A stretch of 64,000 nucleotides of DNA from Bacteroidales bacterium (GTDB taxonomy: Bacteria > Bacteroidota > Bacteroidia > Bacteroidales > ML635J-15): the NCBI GenBank assembly GCA_017617125.1, contig JAFZWY010000039.1, forward strand, positions 13,145 through 77,144, in the 5' to 3' direction. Under the pieces are notes generated by a model, which was given only the letters and a program-made list of their open reading frames with translations, ran no database searches and was not told the origin of the DNA. Each line of letters opens with the position of its first letter. Position 1 is the stretch's first letter. Shown in pieces: positions 7,673-40,761 of the stretch. Position numbers and translations under genes: made by a program.

Positions 7673-7680
7673 TACTTTTG
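7673..7680 (+). promoter_or_regulatory. Bacteroidota -7 promoter box (TACTTTTG) for the riboswitch-led transcript
   Basis: Exact TAnnTTTG match a few nt upstream of the riboswitch 5' end. Confidence 0.6.
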
Positions 7681-7685
7681 CGGCG

Positions 7686-7836
7686 GATTCAGGTTTCCGA
7701 GGAATTAATAGGGAATCTTGTGAAAATCAAGAGCTATACCCGTAGCTGTAAGTTCAGGAAACGACTTTTCGCACTAAGTCACTGGCAATGTCCGGGAAGA
7801 CGCGTAAAGTTTGAACGAGCCAGAAGACCTGCCTGT
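7686..7836 (+). promoter_or_regulatory. cobalamin (B12) riboswitch
   Basis: Conserved core strings are AATAGGGAA, GTGAAAATC, GCTATACCCGTAGCTGTAAG, GTCACTGG and GGGAAGAC, plus the B12 box GAGCCAGAAGACCTGCC, all in the canonical order. Confidence 0.8.
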
Positions 7837-7949
7837 TTTCCATAATCGCAGCCTTCGGGATTAAGGGCGTGGTGATAAAGTTTCGTAACCATAAATGTGC
7901 TGTATTCCGGCCGCTGCAAATTATTATGTATGATTAAAATTATGTTCTA

Positions 7950-10888: not shown

Positions 10889-10961
<73 letters not shown>

Positions 10962-31404: not shown

Positions 31405-31478
31405 GGCGAGGTAGCTCAGCTGGTTAGAGCGCATGATTCATAATCATGAGGTCGGCGGTTCAATCCCGCCTCTCGCTA
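31405..31478 (+). tRNA. tRNA-Met (anticodon CAT); a lysidine-modified tRNA-Ile2 cannot be excluded
   Basis: Acceptor GGCGAGG/TCTCGCT (two G-U pairs), D arm GCTC-AGCTGGTTA-GAGC, anticodon loop TTCATAA, T arm GGCGG-TTCAATC-CCGCC. A TACTTTTG box lies upstream. Confidence 0.85.
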
Positions 31479-35214: not shown

Positions 35215-35607
35215 ATGGATATTTCAGGAAAATTGATAAAGGTATTGGAGCCAATAACAGGCAATGGCGCGAACGGACAATGGAAAAAGCAGTCGTTTGT
35301 AATAGAATACGCCAACGGGCAGTTCCCGAAGAAAGCATGCTTCCAGGTATGGGGCGACAAGGTTGACCTATCCTCGCTTGTAGTAGGCGAAGAAATACAT
35401 GTTTTCTTTGAGCCGGAAAGCCGCGAGTACAACAACAACTGGTACACCGACCTCCGTGCATGGAAGGTAGAAGCAGCTCAAAACCAAAACGGAGCATTCG
35501 CACCGCAGATGCCAACACCTCCGCCACCAACAGGCGCTCCCATGCCAACCGAAGTTCCAAACTTCGTGGATGCTGGCAGCAATGCCGATGACGATTTACC
35601 ATTCTAA
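35215..35607 (+). CDS. DUF3127-type protein with an SSB-like disordered linker and acidic DDDLPF C-terminal tip
   Basis: The N-terminal ~85 aa beta-rich domain (MDISGKLIKVLEP..G.W.KQ.FV) is recognised as DUF3127. It is followed by a P/Q/G-rich linker and the terminal hexapeptide DDDLPF. Confidence 0.7.
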   Translation: MDISGKLIKVLEPITGNGANGQWKKQSFVIEYANGQFPKKACFQVWGDKVDLSSLVVGEEIHVFFEPESREYNNNWYTDLRAWKVEAAQNQNGAFAPQMPTPPPPTGAPMPTEVPNFVDAGSNADDDLPF

Positions 35608-35645: not shown

Positions 35646-38312
35646 TTACAATGCCTCCATTTTCTCCATAAACGCCACCCCTACCCTTAACTCATCGTAC
35701 GAAAACTTTCCATCGGCATCGGCAAAAAGTTGCGACATGCTTCCGTATTCGCCATGCGATTCCAGATAATCCATAACCTCTGCAAACCTTGCCTTGCTAC
35801 CGATAAGCGCCTCTGGTTGAATCTCACCGGTGACAATATACCTCGTCAAATGCGAAAAAACTGTTGACACTGCAAGTGAACGCTCCTTTGCAATTTCTTC
35901 CACCGACATTCCCTGCTTGAACATTTCGAGCGACTTGCGGTACGAATCACCTTTTGCCGGCTTTTCCTTCTTTTCCTTTGCCTTTTTCTTTTTTTCCGAC
36001 TTAGCATCAGCTACTTCTTCTAGTTCCGGCAGAGCATTTTCGTCCACAATGCCATTTGCCTTGCAATAGCCGTTAATAATATTCAGAATCTCGTTGCCAT
36101 AGGCGGCAACTTTTTTTGCGCCAATACCTTTTATCTTGCTAAGCGACTTGGCATTACGCGGCAATTTTTCCACCACCTCGACAAGCGACTTCTGAGGCAA
36201 CACATAATACACCGGCATATCGAACTCGTCGGCAATCGACTTGCGCCAAGCATTAAGGGCTGTAAATAATTCTTTGTTTGTACCTGGAACCGAATATGTT
36301 TTCTGCGACTTACGGCTGAAGGTCGGCTGGAACTTGTCTTCGGTGTCGGAGATAATACGCAAATACATTTCGGTAGAAAAGCCCTCGATGGTCTTTTCCA
36401 AAACATTGCGCTTGCGGTCGTATTCAAGTTCCAATGCTTCGAGAGCCGATTTCATTTCATCGTCTATCTCCTTGTTATCGGACTCGAACAGCATCTGCGA
36501 AAACGGCTCGCCAATAACCTCACCCAACTTACCAAAGAAATATTCCGACGCCTTTGAAATCCTCTGCTGCAAAAACTCATCATCTTTCAACTGCACATTA
36601 GGCGAAGCGGAAAATATTTTCCACAACTGTATGACAAATTTCTTGTTCACACCGAAAATCAACGAATCGAACTGCTGCACGACATCAAGAAGCCGCTGCG
36701 AATATTCAGGGTTGAACTTGTTGAAATTTGCCATATACACCTTGCGCACATCCGACAACTGCCTTTGCAACAAGTTGAAATCAAATATTTTAAGCAAAAT
36801 ATCACGCTGAAACGAAACGACATACGAATTGAGACGAACTTCGTCGGGCTGATTCTGTCGGGCATTGTCGCAAAAAGTTATCACTTCGGTGTCGGACTTT
36901 ATCATCTGCGGAGAAATGGCAGTTTTCAAAGTCAAACCTTCCAGCGAACGACAACGGCTTAGCGCAACATACACCTGCCCGAACGCAAATGCAGCATGAA
37001 CGTCAATAATAGCCTTGTCGAATGTAAGTCCTTGACTTTTATGCACTGTTATCGCCCAAGCAAGCCGCAACGGATACTGTACAAACTCGCCAATAACATT
37101 CTGCTCAATCTCATTGGTTTCGCTGTTTACCGAATACTGAACATTCTCCCATAGTTCCTGCTTGACTTCAATCGGAGACAAGTCGCCATTGCAAAGCACC
37201 ATGATTTTGGAGCCGTCAATCTCGGTTATACGGCCAATTTTTCCATTGTAAAACAGCTTCGCAGGCGAAGAGTCGTTCCTGATAAACATAACCTGCGCGC
37301 CAACTTTCAGCGTGAGAGTTTCGTCGGTAGGATACATATATGGAGGAAAATTGTCCTTTATGTCCGCCGTGAACTGATATTCCTCGCCTTCAAGGGCATC
37401 TAATTTTGATGTATTAATAGAATTTGCATCGTTATTATGAGTTGTAAGGCGGATGCTGTCTTCGTCATCGGCATCAGAAACACGGCTGTTCAGCACTGCA
37501 AGCGACTCTCGAGTGAGGGTATTTGTACGTATTTCATTGAGAATTGACACAAAAACTTCGTCTCGCTGCCTGAAAATATGCGTAAGTTCCACTGTAACAT
37601 AATCCACTTTCTTCAAGGCGTTGCTATCGAAGAAATATGGAGAGCGGTAAAATTTGCTGATAATCCGCCATTCGTCCTCCTTAACAACAGGCGTAAGCTG
37701 GTACAAATCGCCAATCATAAGCAACTGCACACCACCAAACGGCAGCGACGAGCGACGGTAATGACGCAGAACGCTGTCAACGGCGTCAAGCAAATCGGAA
37801 CGCACCATGCTAATCTCGTCAATTACAAGCAAATCGAGCGAGCGCAAAAGCTTTATCTTGTTTCCGCTAACGCGATATTGTTCGCGAATAGGGTTTCCTT
37901 CGCTATCCTTGCTGACAAATGCCAGGTCGGCCCCTTCGGGGATAAAAGGCGTAAACGGAAGCTGAAACATAGAATGGATTGTAACGCCGCCAGCATTGAG
38001 AGCTGCGACACCAGTTGGAGCCACTACAACCATGCGTTTGCGAGTGATGCTCGGCAAACTTTTCAGAAAAGTAGTCTTGCCAGTTCCTGCCTTGCCTGTA
38101 AGAAACACGGACTTCCCGGTAAACTTTATCAGATCGCGGGCTAACTTTATGTTTTTGTCAATGGCTTCCAATTTATTACAATCGTTGTTGCTTGCAAAAG
38201 TAACACTTAATGACGAATTGCAGATGTGCAAATTGGAGTCGTGGCTAATTATTTCTTCGGTCATTTTTGAAATCATTTCTTTTTTTGTATCCGAAAAATC
38301 GGCAGCCGCCAT
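35646..38312 (-). CDS. PIF1/RecD-like SF1 helicase with C-terminal HRDC and HTH domains
   Basis: Walker A GKAGTGKTT, motif Ia VVAPTGVAA, Walker B LVIDEISMV, TVHKSQGLTF. HRDC-like segment (LFTALNAWRKSIADEFDMPVYYVL...IKGIGAKK) and terminal HTH (MSVEEIAKERSLAVSTVFSHL). Confidence 0.85.
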   Translation of the reverse strand: MAAADFSDTKKEMISKMTEEIISHDSNLHICNSSLSVTFASNNDCNKLEAIDKNIKLARDLIKFTGKSVFLTGKAGTGKTTFLKSLPSITRKRMVVVAPTGVAALNAGGVTIHSMFQLPFTPFIPEGADLAFVSKDSEGNPIREQYRVSGNKIKLLRSLDLLVIDEISMVRSDLLDAVDSVLRHYRRSSLPFGGVQLLMIGDLYQLTPVVKEDEWRIISKFYRSPYFFDSNALKKVDYVTVELTHIFRQRDEVFVSILNEIRTNTLTRESLAVLNSRVSDADDEDSIRLTTHNNDANSINTSKLDALEGEEYQFTADIKDNFPPYMYPTDETLTLKVGAQVMFIRNDSSPAKLFYNGKIGRITEIDGSKIMVLCNGDLSPIEVKQELWENVQYSVNSETNEIEQNVIGEFVQYPLRLAWAITVHKSQGLTFDKAIIDVHAAFAFGQVYVALSRCRSLEGLTLKTAISPQMIKSDTEVITFCDNARQNQPDEVRLNSYVVSFQRDILLKIFDFNLLQRQLSDVRKVYMANFNKFNPEYSQRLLDVVQQFDSLIFGVNKKFVIQLWKIFSASPNVQLKDDEFLQQRISKASEYFFGKLGEVIGEPFSQMLFESDNKEIDDEMKSALEALELEYDRKRNVLEKTIEGFSTEMYLRIISDTEDKFQPTFSRKSQKTYSVPGTNKELFTALNAWRKSIADEFDMPVYYVLPQKSLVEVVEKLPRNAKSLSKIKGIGAKKVAAYGNEILNIINGYCKANGIVDENALPELEEVADAKSEKKKKAKEKKEKPAKGDSYRKSLEMFKQGMSVEEIAKERSLAVSTVFSHLTRYIVTGEIQPEALIGSKARFAEVMDYLESHGEYGSMSQLFADADGKFSYDELRVGVAFMEKMEAL

Positions 38313-38335
38313 CTGGCGACCACCGAAATTTGGAA

Positions 38336-38671
38336 TTACGCCCTATCTGGCTTACTAAACAATATCGTATCGGCAACAACCTCGTATGTACACTGTTCGT
38401 TTCCATTCTTGTCTGTGTAGCGGTTCTGCTTCAGGCAACCATCAACAACGACCTCATAACCTTTCACGATTTTTGACTTTACCATATCGGCGAGATTGCC
38501 CCACGCTATGACATTGTGCCACTGCGTTTCCTTAACAACACGGTCGCTTTTCCTGAAGAAGTCGGAAGTCGCTACCGACAATTTTGCCATTTTCGTTCCA
38601 CTTGGAAATTCATAATACTTAGGGTCTCCACCTAGATTTCCAATCAATTGTACTCGATTCTTTAAATTCAT
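38336..38671 (-). CDS. ssb: single-stranded DNA-binding protein, OB-fold only, no acidic tail (SSB1)
   Basis: MNLKNRVQLIGNLGGDP...TQWHNVIAWG...KG..V.V.G.L....Y.D. Ends at residue 111 with no linker or tip. The ATG at 38671 is used; the track start is an upstream GTG. Confidence 0.85.
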   Translation of the reverse strand: MNLKNRVQLIGNLGGDPKYYEFPSGTKMAKLSVATSDFFRKSDRVVKETQWHNVIAWGNLADMVKSKIVKGYEVVVDGCLKQNRYTDKNGNEQCTYEVVADTILFSKPDRA

Positions 38672-38683
38672 AATCTTTAAATT

Positions 38684-38714
38684 TTTGTCAGTTAATAATT
38701 TATTACTACTTTTG
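38684..38714 (+). promoter_or_regulatory. consensus Bacteroidota promoter (-33 TTTG, 19-nt spacer, -7 TACTTTTG) oriented against the flanking genes
   Basis: TTTG at 38684-38687 and TACTTTTG at 38707-38714. The block is ~93% identical to 39620-39650. Confidence 0.5.
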
Positions 38715-38718
38715 CAGT

Positions 38719-38837
38719 GTGTTTCGCTTTGGCACCAAGATCGCGCCACTCGTTTCGGGAAGCCGGCATTTATCTCGTAATGATGCGTGGAAGCCTCCTC
38801 TGCTGGGGGACCAGACAGGCTGAGTGAAACATTTTTT
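38719..38837 (+). ncRNA. candidate small RNA A (antisense-oriented, end-to-end closed stem plus U-tract)
   Basis: The 5' TGTTTC (38720-38725) pairs with the 3' GAAACA (38826-38831), followed by T6. There is an internal CTGG-GGGA-CCAG hairpin. It shares the CGCYTTGGCA and ACAGGCTGRG strings with candidate B. Confidence 0.3.
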
Positions 38838-39252
38838 ATTTATACCTATTGGAATAAAACGATTTGAAAATATTTCCCTTCTTGACGACCTTTACAGCAA
38901 TCGTAAATTTTATTTTACCACGAAACTTTTCCATACTATAAATAATATGATTCTCATCAGATTCCATACTACCATTGCGTACTACATCCATCAGATTTAA
39001 AATTTCCAAAGCGGTAACAGCCCCACGATTTGTCTTGTAATGTTTGAGCAAAACATGTTGTGTGCCTTCATTTTCATCATCAGATGGAAACATTATTGTA
39101 ACAGGACCGCCATTACCATCCGTAGTGCAGATACGTTTCAGTTTCCCTTTGGTCCGACAAAAAGTTTCGAAAACTCTATTCTGCTCCTCGGTTAGTTCCC
39201 TGTTGCCAACCTCAGCACGGAACTGCGCTATCCTATCGTCGATGAGTGCCAT
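38836..39252 (-). CDS. hypothetical basic 138-aa protein X1 (paralog of 39716-40132)
   Basis: N-terminus MALIDDRIAQFR.EVG..ELTEEQ, central H/K-x-V-L-x-KH motif, C-terminal FKSFYS. Starts 13 nt after the SSB2 stop. Confidence 0.7.
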   Translation of the reverse strand: MALIDDRIAQFRAEVGNRELTEEQNRVFETFCRTKGKLKRICTTDGNGGPVTIMFPSDDENEGTQHVLLKHYKTNRGAVTALEILNLMDVVRNGSMESDENHIIYSMEKFRGKIKFTIAVKVVKKGNIFKSFYSNRYK

Positions 39253-39265
39253 ATTGCAATGGATA

Positions 39266-39607
39266 CTATTCCGCCTTTTCCTTTAATGACAATTCGCAAA
39301 TAACCTCATTCGCAACAACTTCCGTTATATACCGCTTTACATTGTTCGCATCCTCGTAACTGCGCGAAGTCAACCTGCCAACGATGGTAACATGCGTTCC
39401 CTTTGTGCATCGCTCCGACACCTTGTCGGCATTCGCACCCCATGCAACGATGTTGTGCCATTCAGTCCGACTAGCCGGCTTGCCATTCTCATAATAACTC
39501 TCGGAAGTTGCCAACGAAAACCTTGCAACCTTTCCACCTCTTGTCTCGTTTACCTTCGGATCAGCACCCATGTTGCCGACCAACATTACAAAATTTCTAA
39601 TTTCCAT
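39266..39607 (-). CDS. ssb: single-stranded DNA-binding protein, OB-fold only, no acidic tail (SSB2)
   Basis: VGNMGADP...ARFSLATSE...TEWHNIVAWG...KGTHVTIVGRL..RSYED....RYITEVVA. 113 aa. Confidence 0.85.
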   Translation of the reverse strand: MEIRNFVMLVGNMGADPKVNETRGGKVARFSLATSESYYENGKPASRTEWHNIVAWGANADKVSERCTKGTHVTIVGRLTSRSYEDANNVKRYITEVVANEVICELSLKEKAE

Positions 39608-39619
39608 GTCTTTTAATTT

Positions 39620-39650
39620 TTTGTCAGTTTATAATTTATTACTACTTTTG
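39620..39650 (+). promoter_or_regulatory. consensus Bacteroidota promoter (-33 TTTG, 19-nt spacer, -7 TACTTTTG) oriented against the flanking genes
   Basis: TTTG at 39620-39623 and TACTTTTG at 39643-39650. Confidence 0.5.
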
Positions 39651-39653
39651 CAT

Positions 39654-39716
39654 TGTCTTTTCGCCTTGGCAAAATTGTTTTCGAAACAATAAACAGGCTG
39701 GGGAAAAGACTTTTTT
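39654..39716 (+). ncRNA. candidate small RNA B (antisense-oriented, closed stem plus U-tract)
   Basis: GTCTTTTC (39655-39662) pairs with GAAAAGAC (39703-39710), followed by T6. There is an inner 7-bp hairpin ATTGTTT-TCG-AAACAAT (39674-39690). The T-run abuts the X2 stop codon. Confidence 0.35.
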
Positions 39717-40132
39717 CATTTATAGCCAATTGTTGAATAAAAGGACTTGAATACCGCATCTTTTCCGTTTGAAAAAACTTTCAATACCGTAAAATATAAT
39801 GCACCATCGCATGTCCATGCCTTTTCGTATATTATATTCCCCATACTCATATACTTGCGGCCAGTTCTAACAGTATCAAACATATCCAGTATTTGGACTG
39901 CTGTAACTGTTCCATCAGGTGTACAATAATGTTTCGTAAGCACTTTTTTTACTTCAGCAGAAGAATCCATCGACACCCGAAGGGAAACACCTTCTACATC
40001 AACTATATGAATTCTAACAAGCGAACCATTCTTTTTTGTGAATGCATTGAAAATCTTTCTCTGCTCCTCAGTTAGTTCCATGTCGCCAACTTCCGTACGG
40101 AACTGCGCTATCCTATCGTCGATGAGTGCCAT
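39716..40132 (-). CDS. hypothetical basic 138-aa protein X2 (paralog of 38836-39252)
   Basis: Same length and motifs as X1. Its first 36 nt are identical to X1. Starts 17 nt after the SSB3 stop. Confidence 0.7.
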   Translation of the reverse strand: MALIDDRIAQFRTEVGDMELTEEQRKIFNAFTKKNGSLVRIHIVDVEGVSLRVSMDSSAEVKKVLTKHYCTPDGTVTAVQILDMFDTVRTGRKYMSMGNIIYEKAWTCDGALYFTVLKVFSNGKDAVFKSFYSTIGYK

Positions 40133-40149
40133 AATTCAAACACCAGAAT

Positions 40150-40515
40150 TTATGCAATATTCTTTTCTACCTTTGCATCCGCACGTTTCAACCTTCTTAT
40201 CATTATGCTGTCGGCAACAATCTCCGAAACTTTGCGCTCACGGCCTTCGCGATCGGTAAACTTGGTGCTTACCACGCTACCTATAACTATTATTTCACTA
40301 CCCGTGGAAACTTCGCGATCCTGCAAAACTTCTGCAATACGATTCCATGCCGTAACACTATGCCACTGCGTGTCACGCACATATTTACCTTCTTTTTTAT
40401 AAACATCAGTAGTTGCGAGCGAGAAGCGTGCGAGTTTCCTACCATTTCCAAAATCCCTGATCTGCGGTTCCGAACCCAGATTTCCAATCAGCTGTACGCG
40501 ATTTCTTAAATTCAT
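40150..40515 (-). CDS. ssb: single-stranded DNA-binding protein, OB-fold only, no acidic tail (SSB3)
   Basis: MNLRNRVQLIGNLGSEP...ARFSLATTD...TQWHSVTAWN. 121 aa with a basic C-terminus. Confidence 0.85.
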   Translation of the reverse strand: MNLRNRVQLIGNLGSEPQIRDFGNGRKLARFSLATTDVYKKEGKYVRDTQWHSVTAWNRIAEVLQDREVSTGSEIIVIGSVVSTKFTDREGRERKVSEIVADSIMIRRLKRADAKVEKNIA

Positions 40516-40705
40516 AATCGTAAATTTTTAAACGTTAAACATTTTGTTCGGACTTCGTTGTGAAATCCGATGCAAAAGTCGGGCGATTCGGAAATACGAG
40601 TCGGTTTTTAAACGCTTACTTTCGTTTATTAGTCGTTTCTTGTCGTTTATACACGGATATGTAATTATGTTTCAATACGATAAAAAAAATTTCATTTTTC
40701 ATAAT

Positions 40706-40741
40706 GCAAAAAAAGAGGAAACTCCATCGGAATTTCCTCTT
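40706..40741 (-). terminator. intrinsic terminator of the DUF1015 gene
   Basis: On the minus strand: AGAGGAAA-11 nt-TTTCCTCT followed by T7. Confidence 0.8.
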
Positions 40742-40761
40742 TCTTATTCGAGTAATAACAA

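Follow-up and report, generated by a model that had tools for sequence, protein, structure and literature searches.

The SSB/X array and its spacers

The window analysed here is a stretch of 64,000 nucleotides from contig JAFZWY010000039.1 of a Bacteroidales bacterium, and its subject is a pair of predicted non-coding units that lie opposite an operon-like gene array. On the minus strand the array reads SSB3, X2, SSB2, X1, and SSB1, then a PIF1/HRDC/HTH_40 helicase gene, with a DUF1015 gene upstream of the array (Table 1). The spacer between X1 and SSB1 (spacer 1) comprises 164 nt and that between X2 and SSB2 (spacer 2) 108 nt. An earlier inspection of this stretch (hereafter, the original prediction) had proposed that spacer 1 encodes a small RNA transcribed against the operon. 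A promoter, covariation of the closing helix, G·U pairs, a U run, folding energies, and linkage to X all support a small RNA on the strand opposite the operon, and judged from sequence comparisons the spacer element is very probably a genuine small-RNA gene of the plus strand.

In each unit, the two ends of the RNA pair to form a closing helix (P1) of 13–17 bp, inside which lies a structured core of ~18–80 nt. At least seven core types (A–G) were distinguished overall, six of which (A–F) occur in array loci; the window contains type A in spacer 1 (small RNA-1) and type D in spacer 2 (small RNA-2; fold z-score −3.6). P1 starts 5 nt after the −7 promoter box in every type. From 5′ to 3′, the array unit consists of TAnnTTTG, four variable nucleotides (mostly CAYY), the 5′ arm, a short conserved UUKGCA(CC), a core of variable length, a conserved (A)CAGGCUG, the complementary 3′ arm, and 6–9 T at the X stop codon. 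For the spacers in general, the U run is U6–11. Six or more T follow P1 in 28 of the 30 distinct alignment rows (locus L135 has UUUU). The original prediction had closed the RNA of spacer 1 by pairing TGTTTC (38720–38725) with GAAACA (38826–38831); these segments do pair, but the helix is longer, with 14 bp including G·U pairs (Table 1). The six T that it had described as running into the X1 stop codon were found there. Its inner CTGG-GGGA-CCAG hairpin was correctly located (38803–38814), but it is one of two readings, and RNAalifold favours CCUCC/GGGGG.

Searches of Rfam 15 (gathering and E-value modes) gave no match in the window spacers at E up to 10, and none at E up to 1 in eight loci that cover types A, B, C, F, and G and the L133 variant. 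Inspection by eye found no small open reading frames (ORFs) conserved between types on either strand of the spacer. Outside the 30-row alignment, the unit of L134 (2921–3000, minus strand) has P1 followed by CUUUU, and ~30 nt further on a second compact hairpin and T8 precede the X stop; the L134 RNA may therefore be longer.

Promoter and composite conserved block

The block next to SSB1 had been described as better conserved than the genes themselves. Positions 38676–38719 indeed match 39612–39655 at 41 of 44 positions, and the coding 5′ ends of SSB1 and SSB2 are about half identical, as claimed (56% over 45 nt, 48% over 90 nt). All motif coordinates of the original prediction proved right, including those of the plus-strand promoter (TTTG, a 19-nt spacer, and TACTTTTG), but the SSB1 start codon lies at 38669–38671 and not at 38672. 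The primary sigma factor of Bacteroidota recognizes the consensus −33 TTTG / −7 TAnnTTTG (PMC7366714). A TTTG about 19–21 nt upstream of the −7 box is expected of such a promoter, and the distance is 19 nt in both window copies. On the minus strand, TAnnTTTG is absent from spacer 1, as had been stated, and also from spacer 2, where a one-mismatch variant, CAATTTTG, is present. In the window, TTTG-N17–21-TAnnTTTG was observed 10 times against 2.4 expected (0 of 100 shuffles reach 10), and two of the other matches lie just upstream of the tRNA genes at 10889 and 31405. The extended −7 box with the following CA, TACTTTTGCA, is common to tRNA genes and small-RNA promoters.

When 25 distinct promoter contexts were compared, the −7 box TAnnTTTG was present in all of them and varied only at the two free positions (nn), with the forms TACTTTTG, TAATTTTG, TATTTTTG, TACCTTTG, and TATCTTTG. 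TTTG is found 17–21 nt upstream of the box in 21 of the 25 contexts, and the remaining promoter region shows no conservation outside SSB/X arrays.

As an alternative, the original prediction had offered that the conserved block is the leader of the SSB genes. This is true of the ~30–38 nt beside the SSB start codon: in L003, L004, and L005, SSB2 directly follows SSB3 or a gene termed Y (described below), with no X gene, −7 box, or RNA upstream, and only the 30–38 nt before the start codon are kept. It does not apply to the distal part of the block, which travels with X and cannot be an SSB leader because the unit accompanies X even where no SSB adjoins. Based on these sequence comparisons, the 44-nt block is a composite of a putative SSB mRNA leader in its SSB-near half and the predicted −7 box and start of the small RNA in its distal half, and only the ~30 nt nearest SSB would act as SSB leader. 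An intergenic block that is conserved above its genes can thus combine an mRNA leader with a promoter of the opposite strand. Recombination may contribute to the near-identity of the block within one genome; module swaps have their joints there and at the conserved 5′ end of X. At the SSB3–X2 junction (17 nt), a weaker TACCTTTG box upstream of X2 (40169–40176, plus strand) has no good −33 element and no structured RNA downstream, and has probably arisen by chance from the A-rich leader.

Covariation and strand of the closing helix

The P1 arms vary between types and stay complementary (A: GUGUUUCGC/GUGAAACAU; B: GCCUU/AAGGC; C: UCUUUCAGA/UCUGGAGGA; D: GUCUUUUC/GAAAAGAC), with a mean duplex energy of −11.6 kcal/mol for cognate arms compared to −5.2 kcal/mol for non-cognate arms. 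P1 is part of the minimum-energy fold of 23 of the 24 folded sequences (types A–E), and also of that of type F. Compensatory changes in the closing stem, which the original prediction had named as a test, are present: 11 of the 14 pairs change on both sides. Over 30 distinct sequences, 94.5% of the P1 cells are paired and 72 cells show two-sided changes, compared to 18.7 in shuffled alignments (0 of 500 shuffles reach 72), and pairing falls to 29–61% in slid controls, in which the partner was moved by 1–3 columns. One-sided changes within types are mostly U–A to U–G or G–U to A–U.

Several properties distinguish the two strands. Folds of the plus strand are more stable in 23 of 24 sequences (by a mean of 5 kcal/mol), and many P1 pairs are G·U, which are valid on the plus strand only; in types C and F and in L135, P1 forms only by way of U·G pairs, to which A·C mismatches correspond on the gene strand. 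Only on the plus strand does the T run come 3′ of P1. A pattern scan returned 31 matches on the anti-gene strand (30 true, one false positive) and none on the gene strand. The covariance model based on P1 detected exactly two copies in the 64-kb window and, elsewhere, copies only beside X, all of them on the anti-gene strand.

Linkage of the RNA unit to the X family

Searching with an alignment of X proteins yielded 10 loci in genome bins of rumen Bacteroidales and a further 11 in metagenomes. The array between the DUF1015 gene and the helicase gene varies among them, with 3–5 SSB paralogues and 1–4 X genes of different subtypes, and in these related arrays the RNA unit follows X on the opposite strand in 31 of 31 X genes. 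The core type tracks the X subtype, and the downstream SSB varies. Among orthologous copies, the divergence of the RNA (K = 0.03–0.13) is lower than that of X at synonymous (dS = 0.2–2.7) and nonsynonymous sites (dN up to 0.18); for the first pair of the window, X1 dS is 0.3–2.7 and small RNA-1 K is 0.03–0.13. Because RNA K is below both dS and dN of X, the non-coding unit is more constrained than the adjacent X protein.

More distant X homologues were found by profile search, and those with fetched contigs are 30–42% identical to X1. Their contigs resemble mobile elements (Phage_integrase, Peptidase_M15_3, LPD1, and LPD3 domains; RVT_1 in one), and no SSB is next to X in any of nine distinct contexts. 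The RNA unit (TAnnTTTG, P1, and U run), convergent with X, is present in all nine: six are clear model matches (E from 1e-8 to 0.0025), L138 is a weak match (E 0.34), the L134 unit was recognised by eye only, and that of L140 is cut by the contig end. A B-like core is kept across the distant loci, with a few compensatory changes in its inner hairpins. Overall, the convergent antisense layout was seen in the window, in L001–L020, and in L131–L142. The RNA is also kept beside decayed X genes (L001 and L014), which fits an antidote role. On the evidence of these sequences, the RNA unit is the constant partner of the X family and not of SSB. We found no X relatives in viral contigs and, by tblastn, no X homologues in plasmid and phage records; 109 matches to the RNA pattern in viral contigs were dismissed as chance, only one of them having a weak 3′ motif.

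The X proteins have 136–195 amino acids and a confident alpha/beta model (pLDDT 90). X1 and X2 gave no Pfam, PHROG, or PADLOC match. Weak matches to the PBECR1/PBECR3 nuclease families (PF18809, PF18812) were returned by 7 of 30 X family members (best E 4e-4), all below the Pfam gathering score and none from X1 or X2 of the window, such that the PBECR resemblance is a weak lead only. Fold matches in BFVD were likewise weak (phage polyvalent proteins and a nuclease), and comparison of the X fold and sequence with PDB gave no significant match. The likeness to PBECR and polyvalent proteins fits the LPD1/LPD3 neighbourhood of the distant homologues.

The arrays show further variation. Gene number and order differ between closely related rumen genome bins (L001–L021, L142), the junctions lying in the leader/promoter block and at the X 5′ end, both of which are conserved. 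The X stop codon is lost in L007:1901–2428 (also in L015 and L016), L009:4001–4465, and L135:2501–3088; the stop-less ORFs run through the complement of the small RNA to reach 154–195 amino acids, and the RNA sequence and P1 are intact. Some arrays contain gene Y (L003:2847–3605, L006:3250–3993, L009:3250–3990, and L013:315–1073), which encodes an LPD3-domain protein (PF18798) of 246–252 amino acids, the N-terminal LAPNGKISNL motif of which matches a 2900-position polyvalent-protein PHROG profile. No RNA unit was found at the Y gene. In L001, Y and the following X are both reduced to fragments.

Metatranscriptome and DNA contigs

The available RNA data are unstranded, assembled metatranscriptome contigs. 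Contigs from nine metatranscriptome or probable-RNA runs were assigned to the RNA region (X2, X26–X29, X36, X37, X39, and X1, where the contigs of run X1 lie on other parts of the array). Those over the RNA region are usually joined to the X coding region; one contig, of run X2 on L005:3390–3615, leads from X across the entire RNA gene and into the promoter block. The left ends of the metatranscriptome contigs cluster at 38723–38761; since DNA assemblies are likewise broken at the repeated block (38687, 38716), this clustering is no evidence of a start site. In one DNA run (X4), a minority contig links position 38716, directly behind the −7 box, with position 39180 in the conserved 5′ region of X, which points to a co-existing variant with another X-plus-RNA cassette. 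A single metatranscriptome contig of run X36 (depth 13.8) ends in Illumina adapter at L005:3531, within the type B RNA region.

Proposed mechanism and alternative explanations

A self-contained small-RNA gene opposite the operon, with the product serving as a cis-antisense regulator or antidote of X, is probably the best overall explanation of these sequence patterns. Transcription of the plus strand would start ~5 nt after the −7 box of a tRNA-grade promoter, and P1 with the U run would terminate the RNA at the X stop codon; because the U run directly follows P1, the two can act as an intrinsic terminator. A terminator scan found no gene-strand terminator after X, and in most contexts the start codon of the next gene lies 4–15 nt past the −33 box, so the operon mRNA must cross the small-RNA gene; the RNA then matches the 3′ flank of the X mRNA with perfect complementarity. 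Acting in cis, the RNA would down-regulate X or serve as an antidote to it, and would do likewise for read-through into the downstream gene, by head-on transcriptional interference combined with formation of a duplex with the X-to-downstream-gene mRNA that is then cleaved. By analogy, cis-antisense action of the kind described for GadY, SraG, and 3′-overlapping type I antitoxins appears the most likely mode; we put forward the antisense mechanism specifically as a tentative proposal.

Several results weigh against this explanation. The contigs that span X and the RNA region fit read-through operon mRNA or DNA carry-over, and being unstranded they say nothing about an RNA of the plus strand; their depth over the RNA region is not above that over X. 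P1 encloses 18–80 nt and is not the compact hairpin of an intrinsic terminator, and a simple terminator scan did not call P1 with its U run. The covariation counts were made on model-fitted alignments, which favours structure, and within a type the sequences resemble each other too closely to provide independent covariation; the model-fitted result is matched by the slid controls and by the raw arm sequences. Lastly, complementarity in cis needs no sequence conservation, yet the unpaired core motifs GCACC, GGAGGAAC, and ACAGGC are kept across X homologues of only 36–45% identity.

The conservation of these unpaired motifs is the starting point of the strongest alternative, in which the RNA is real and its folded core makes it a specific partner of the X protein, a PBECR-like nuclease for which it would be an antitoxin, inhibitor, cofactor, or substrate mimic; its antisense position would be incidental or serve only co-inheritance. 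The discrete core types that track X variants and not the downstream gene, RNA divergence below the dN of X, retention of the RNA beside degraded X genes, and the weak PBECR1/PBECR3 and polyvalent-protein/nuclease fold matches of X all agree with such a role. When each RNA type was compared with cognate and non-cognate X mRNAs, no cognate-specific pairing in trans was found, which also agrees with it. However, the units abut X tail to tail in every instance, which would be needless for a purely trans-acting RNA, the link between core type and X could be plain linkage, and the nuclease assignment of X is below Pfam thresholds and has no PDB fold match. We regard this alternative as possible but on the unlikely side. 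More speculatively, and with still less confidence, X and the RNA might constitute an undescribed two-part module of Bacteroidales mobile elements, in which a cognate folded RNA checks or guides a BECR-fold nuclease and the variable core sets specificity. Such a module, distinct from types I and III, might serve as a toxin-antidote or conflict system of RNA and protein, multiplied in rumen Bacteroidales into chromosomal arrays that alternate with tail-less SSB paralogues; this part is conjectured with the same reserve.

It is improbable that the whole block is an A-rich translation leader or an autoregulatory operator of the SSB mRNA, with the plus-strand promoter and stem being coincidental. 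The 30–38 nt kept upstream of SSB2 where no RNA is present do suit a leader, A-rich Bacteroidota leaders have a T-rich complement prone to TTTG-like motifs, and the weaker box upstream of X2 is an example of such a motif; but the −7 box, P1 start, and U run recur after X homologues with no adjacent SSB and quite different flanking genes, where only the motif positions are conserved, and the covarying P1 and conserved core are left without explanation. Slightly less probable again is a role in the mRNA of the gene strand, where the structure would be a stabilising or processing hairpin between the X and SSB cistrons. On that strand, P1 can form with similar energies in types B, D, and E, and RNA contigs span X and the spacer, but 23 of 24 sequences fold less stably there, A·C mismatches arise in types A, C, and F and L135, and neither the conserved promoter nor the one-sided T run is explained. 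A DNA-level element (an integron attC-like cassette site, a MITE/REP-like hairpin, or an invertible promoter) is the least credible of the alternatives, because the differences in array composition between close relatives, the module swaps that break in the conserved block and X 5′ end (as in the 38716–39180 joint), and the hairpin with conserved ends and a middle of variable sequence and length after each X are set against arm sequences without GTTRRRY/RYYYAAC core sites, arrays with no adjoining integrase seen, pairing that depends on G·U, single copies in mobile elements, a single orientation throughout (0 gene-strand matches and no strand-changing joints in DNA runs), and a promoter without flanking inverted repeats.

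Among the specific candidates considered, the integron attC site was rejected for its missing core sites and the absence of an integrase from the array loci, and the invertible promoter for the absence of flanking inverted repeats and of inverted copies. A retron non-coding RNA, suggested by the paired ends, was rejected because the array loci contain no reverse transcriptase and the RNA is wrongly oriented; only one locus (L134) has a reverse-transcriptase gene nearby. A sigma-54 reading of TGGCAC was rejected by eye, as no −12 TTGC follows.

Comparison with known RNA systems

GadY (gadX–gadW) and SraG (rpsO–pnp) of E. coli are cis-encoded antisense small RNAs in operon spacers (PMC5029454). 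Like the X-linked RNA, they lie on the opposite strand between co-oriented genes, are convergent with the upstream gene and complementary to the intergenic mRNA, and have their own promoter and terminator (predicted from sequence in our case). They differ in showing no sequence or Rfam relationship to the X-linked RNA and in belonging to another phylum with another promoter type. The X-linked RNA, in contrast, lies wholly inside its terminator helix, has a strongly conserved, typed core, and is tied to one protein family across mobile elements; its regulatory role is proposed here. In Bacteroides, DonS-type cis-antisense RNAs of 78–128 nt repress their neighbouring gene, and candidate type I toxin-antitoxin pairs have been reported in B. 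thetaiotaomicron (PMC7366714). The DonS RNAs share the phylum and promoter type of the X-linked RNA; however, they are divergent to susC homologues in polysaccharide utilisation loci, whereas the X-linked RNA is 3′-convergent with X. No Rfam match of the X-linked RNA was found, including among Bacteroides small-RNA families.

Type I toxin-antitoxin systems with a 3′-overlapping antitoxin RNA include txpA/RatA and bsrG/SR4. In SymE/SymR, a nuclease-like toxin is combined with an antisense RNA (PMC5029454). The X loci resemble type I systems in having a protein gene with a convergent or overlapping antisense RNA, in their location on mobile elements, and in an RNA that outlasts the decaying protein gene. 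They differ in that X is a soluble alpha/beta protein of 138 amino acids and not a small hydrophobic membrane peptide (under about 60 amino acids), and in that the RNA would overlap only the 3′ flank of X and not its coding region; toxicity of X is putative. The overlap with X mRNA follows only if that mRNA reads into the spacer; the missing gene-strand terminator and the contigs spanning X and the spacer imply that it does. The antitoxins of type III (ToxIN) systems are tandem repeats that lie on the toxin's own strand, upstream of it, and that the toxin processes. They are alike in pairing a structured RNA with a putative endoribonuclease, possibly in a cognate-specific manner, but the X-linked RNA is a single unit on the opposite strand downstream of X. 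As predicted from sequence, the layout corresponds to that of cis-antisense small RNAs such as GadY, SraG, and type I antitoxins, with DonS as a precedent in Bacteroides. Its distinctive features are an RNA enclosed in its terminator helix, a conserved and typed core, a soluble 138-amino-acid partner, and spread on mobile elements together with chromosomal arrays.

The units form a well-supported RNA family without an Rfam match, in a phylum in which few small RNAs have a known logic. Constant pairing with the uncharacterised, possibly nuclease-like X in both mobile elements and chromosomal arrays provides a handle on X function and marks a candidate for a toxin or conflict module under RNA control in Bacteroidales of the gut and rumen.

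Other features of the locus

Coordinates of the genes and predicted elements are given in Table 1. The box GACTTTTG upstream of SSB3 is the only gene-strand promoter-like site of the array and is likely, from its sequence, to be the operon promoter. The predicted 5′ end of the SSB3 mRNA (40549–40580, minus strand) would form an 8-bp hairpin, CGGAUUUC ACAAC GAAGUCCG, after the promoter-like GACTTTTGCATCG, and this hairpin is kept upstream of SSB3 in all loci. The 12-mer ACTTTTGCATCG of the same region also occurs in the small-RNA promoters of several related loci, and the copies in the small-RNA promoters of the window read ...GCAGTG and ...GCATTG.

Table 1 Genes and predicted RNA elements of the SSB/X array (window positions)
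Feature	Position	Strand	Remark
Predicted small RNA-1, type A, about 119 nt	38719–38837	+	Antisense to X1–SSB1 intergenic mRNA; covariance model match 38707–38840, 85 bits
−33 element TTTG, small RNA-1 promoter	38684–38687	+	Overlapped by SSB1 leader on opposite strand
−7 element TACTTTTG, small RNA-1 promoter	38707–38714	+
P1 5′ arm, small RNA-1	38719–38733	+	Pairs with 38819–38832
P1 3′ arm, small RNA-1	38819–38832	+	Includes conserved GGCUGA
U run (T6), predicted terminator tail of small RNA-1	38832–38837	+	Overlaps X1 stop codon
Predicted small RNA-2, type D, about 62 nt	39655–39716	+	Covariance model match 39643–39718, 61.9 bits
Small RNA-2 promoter	39620–39650	+	TTTG 39620–39623, TACTTTTG 39643–39650; 19-nt spacer
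P1 of small RNA-2	39655–39670 with 39697–39710	+	T6 at 39711–39716, abuts X2 stop codon
SSB1 5′ leader (putative), SSB-proximal part of conserved block	38672–38702	−	30–38 nt kept upstream of SSB2 elsewhere
Promoter-like box GACTTTTG upstream of SSB3	40573–40580	−	Kept in all related loci
SSB3 (PF00436)	40150–40515	−	First gene of array
X2 (138 amino acids)	39716–40132	−	44% identical to X1; type D RNA partner
SSB2 (PF00436)	39266–39607	−
X1 (138 amino acids)	38836–39252	−	Constant partner of type A RNA; stop codon 38836–38838
SSB1 (PF00436)	38336–38671	−	On gene strand downstream of small RNA-1
PIF1/HRDC/HTH_40 helicase	35646–38312	−	ORF start at 38312

The SSB paralogues of the arrays are proteins of 111–121 amino acids, and the C-terminus of SSB1 has no acidic tip. 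A DUF3127 protein encoded next to the helicase gene (35215–35607, plus strand) ends in DDDLPF, which we take to resemble the C-terminal tip of canonical SSBs. Just 3′ of SSB1, a terminator-like hairpin (38299–38326, minus strand; 12 pairs, then TTTTT) overlaps the first helicase codons and may be an attenuator or may close the operon. A near-perfect palindrome of 17 bp with A and T runs on its flanks (40709–40745), situated between the DUF1015 gene and the SSB array, looks like a bidirectional terminator and accounts for spurious low-score Rfam matches to miRNA and plastid families. The sole Rfam matches in the window are a cobalamin riboswitch (7674–7850, plus strand; 97 bits) and tRNA genes at 10889–10961 and 31405–31478 (both plus strand).

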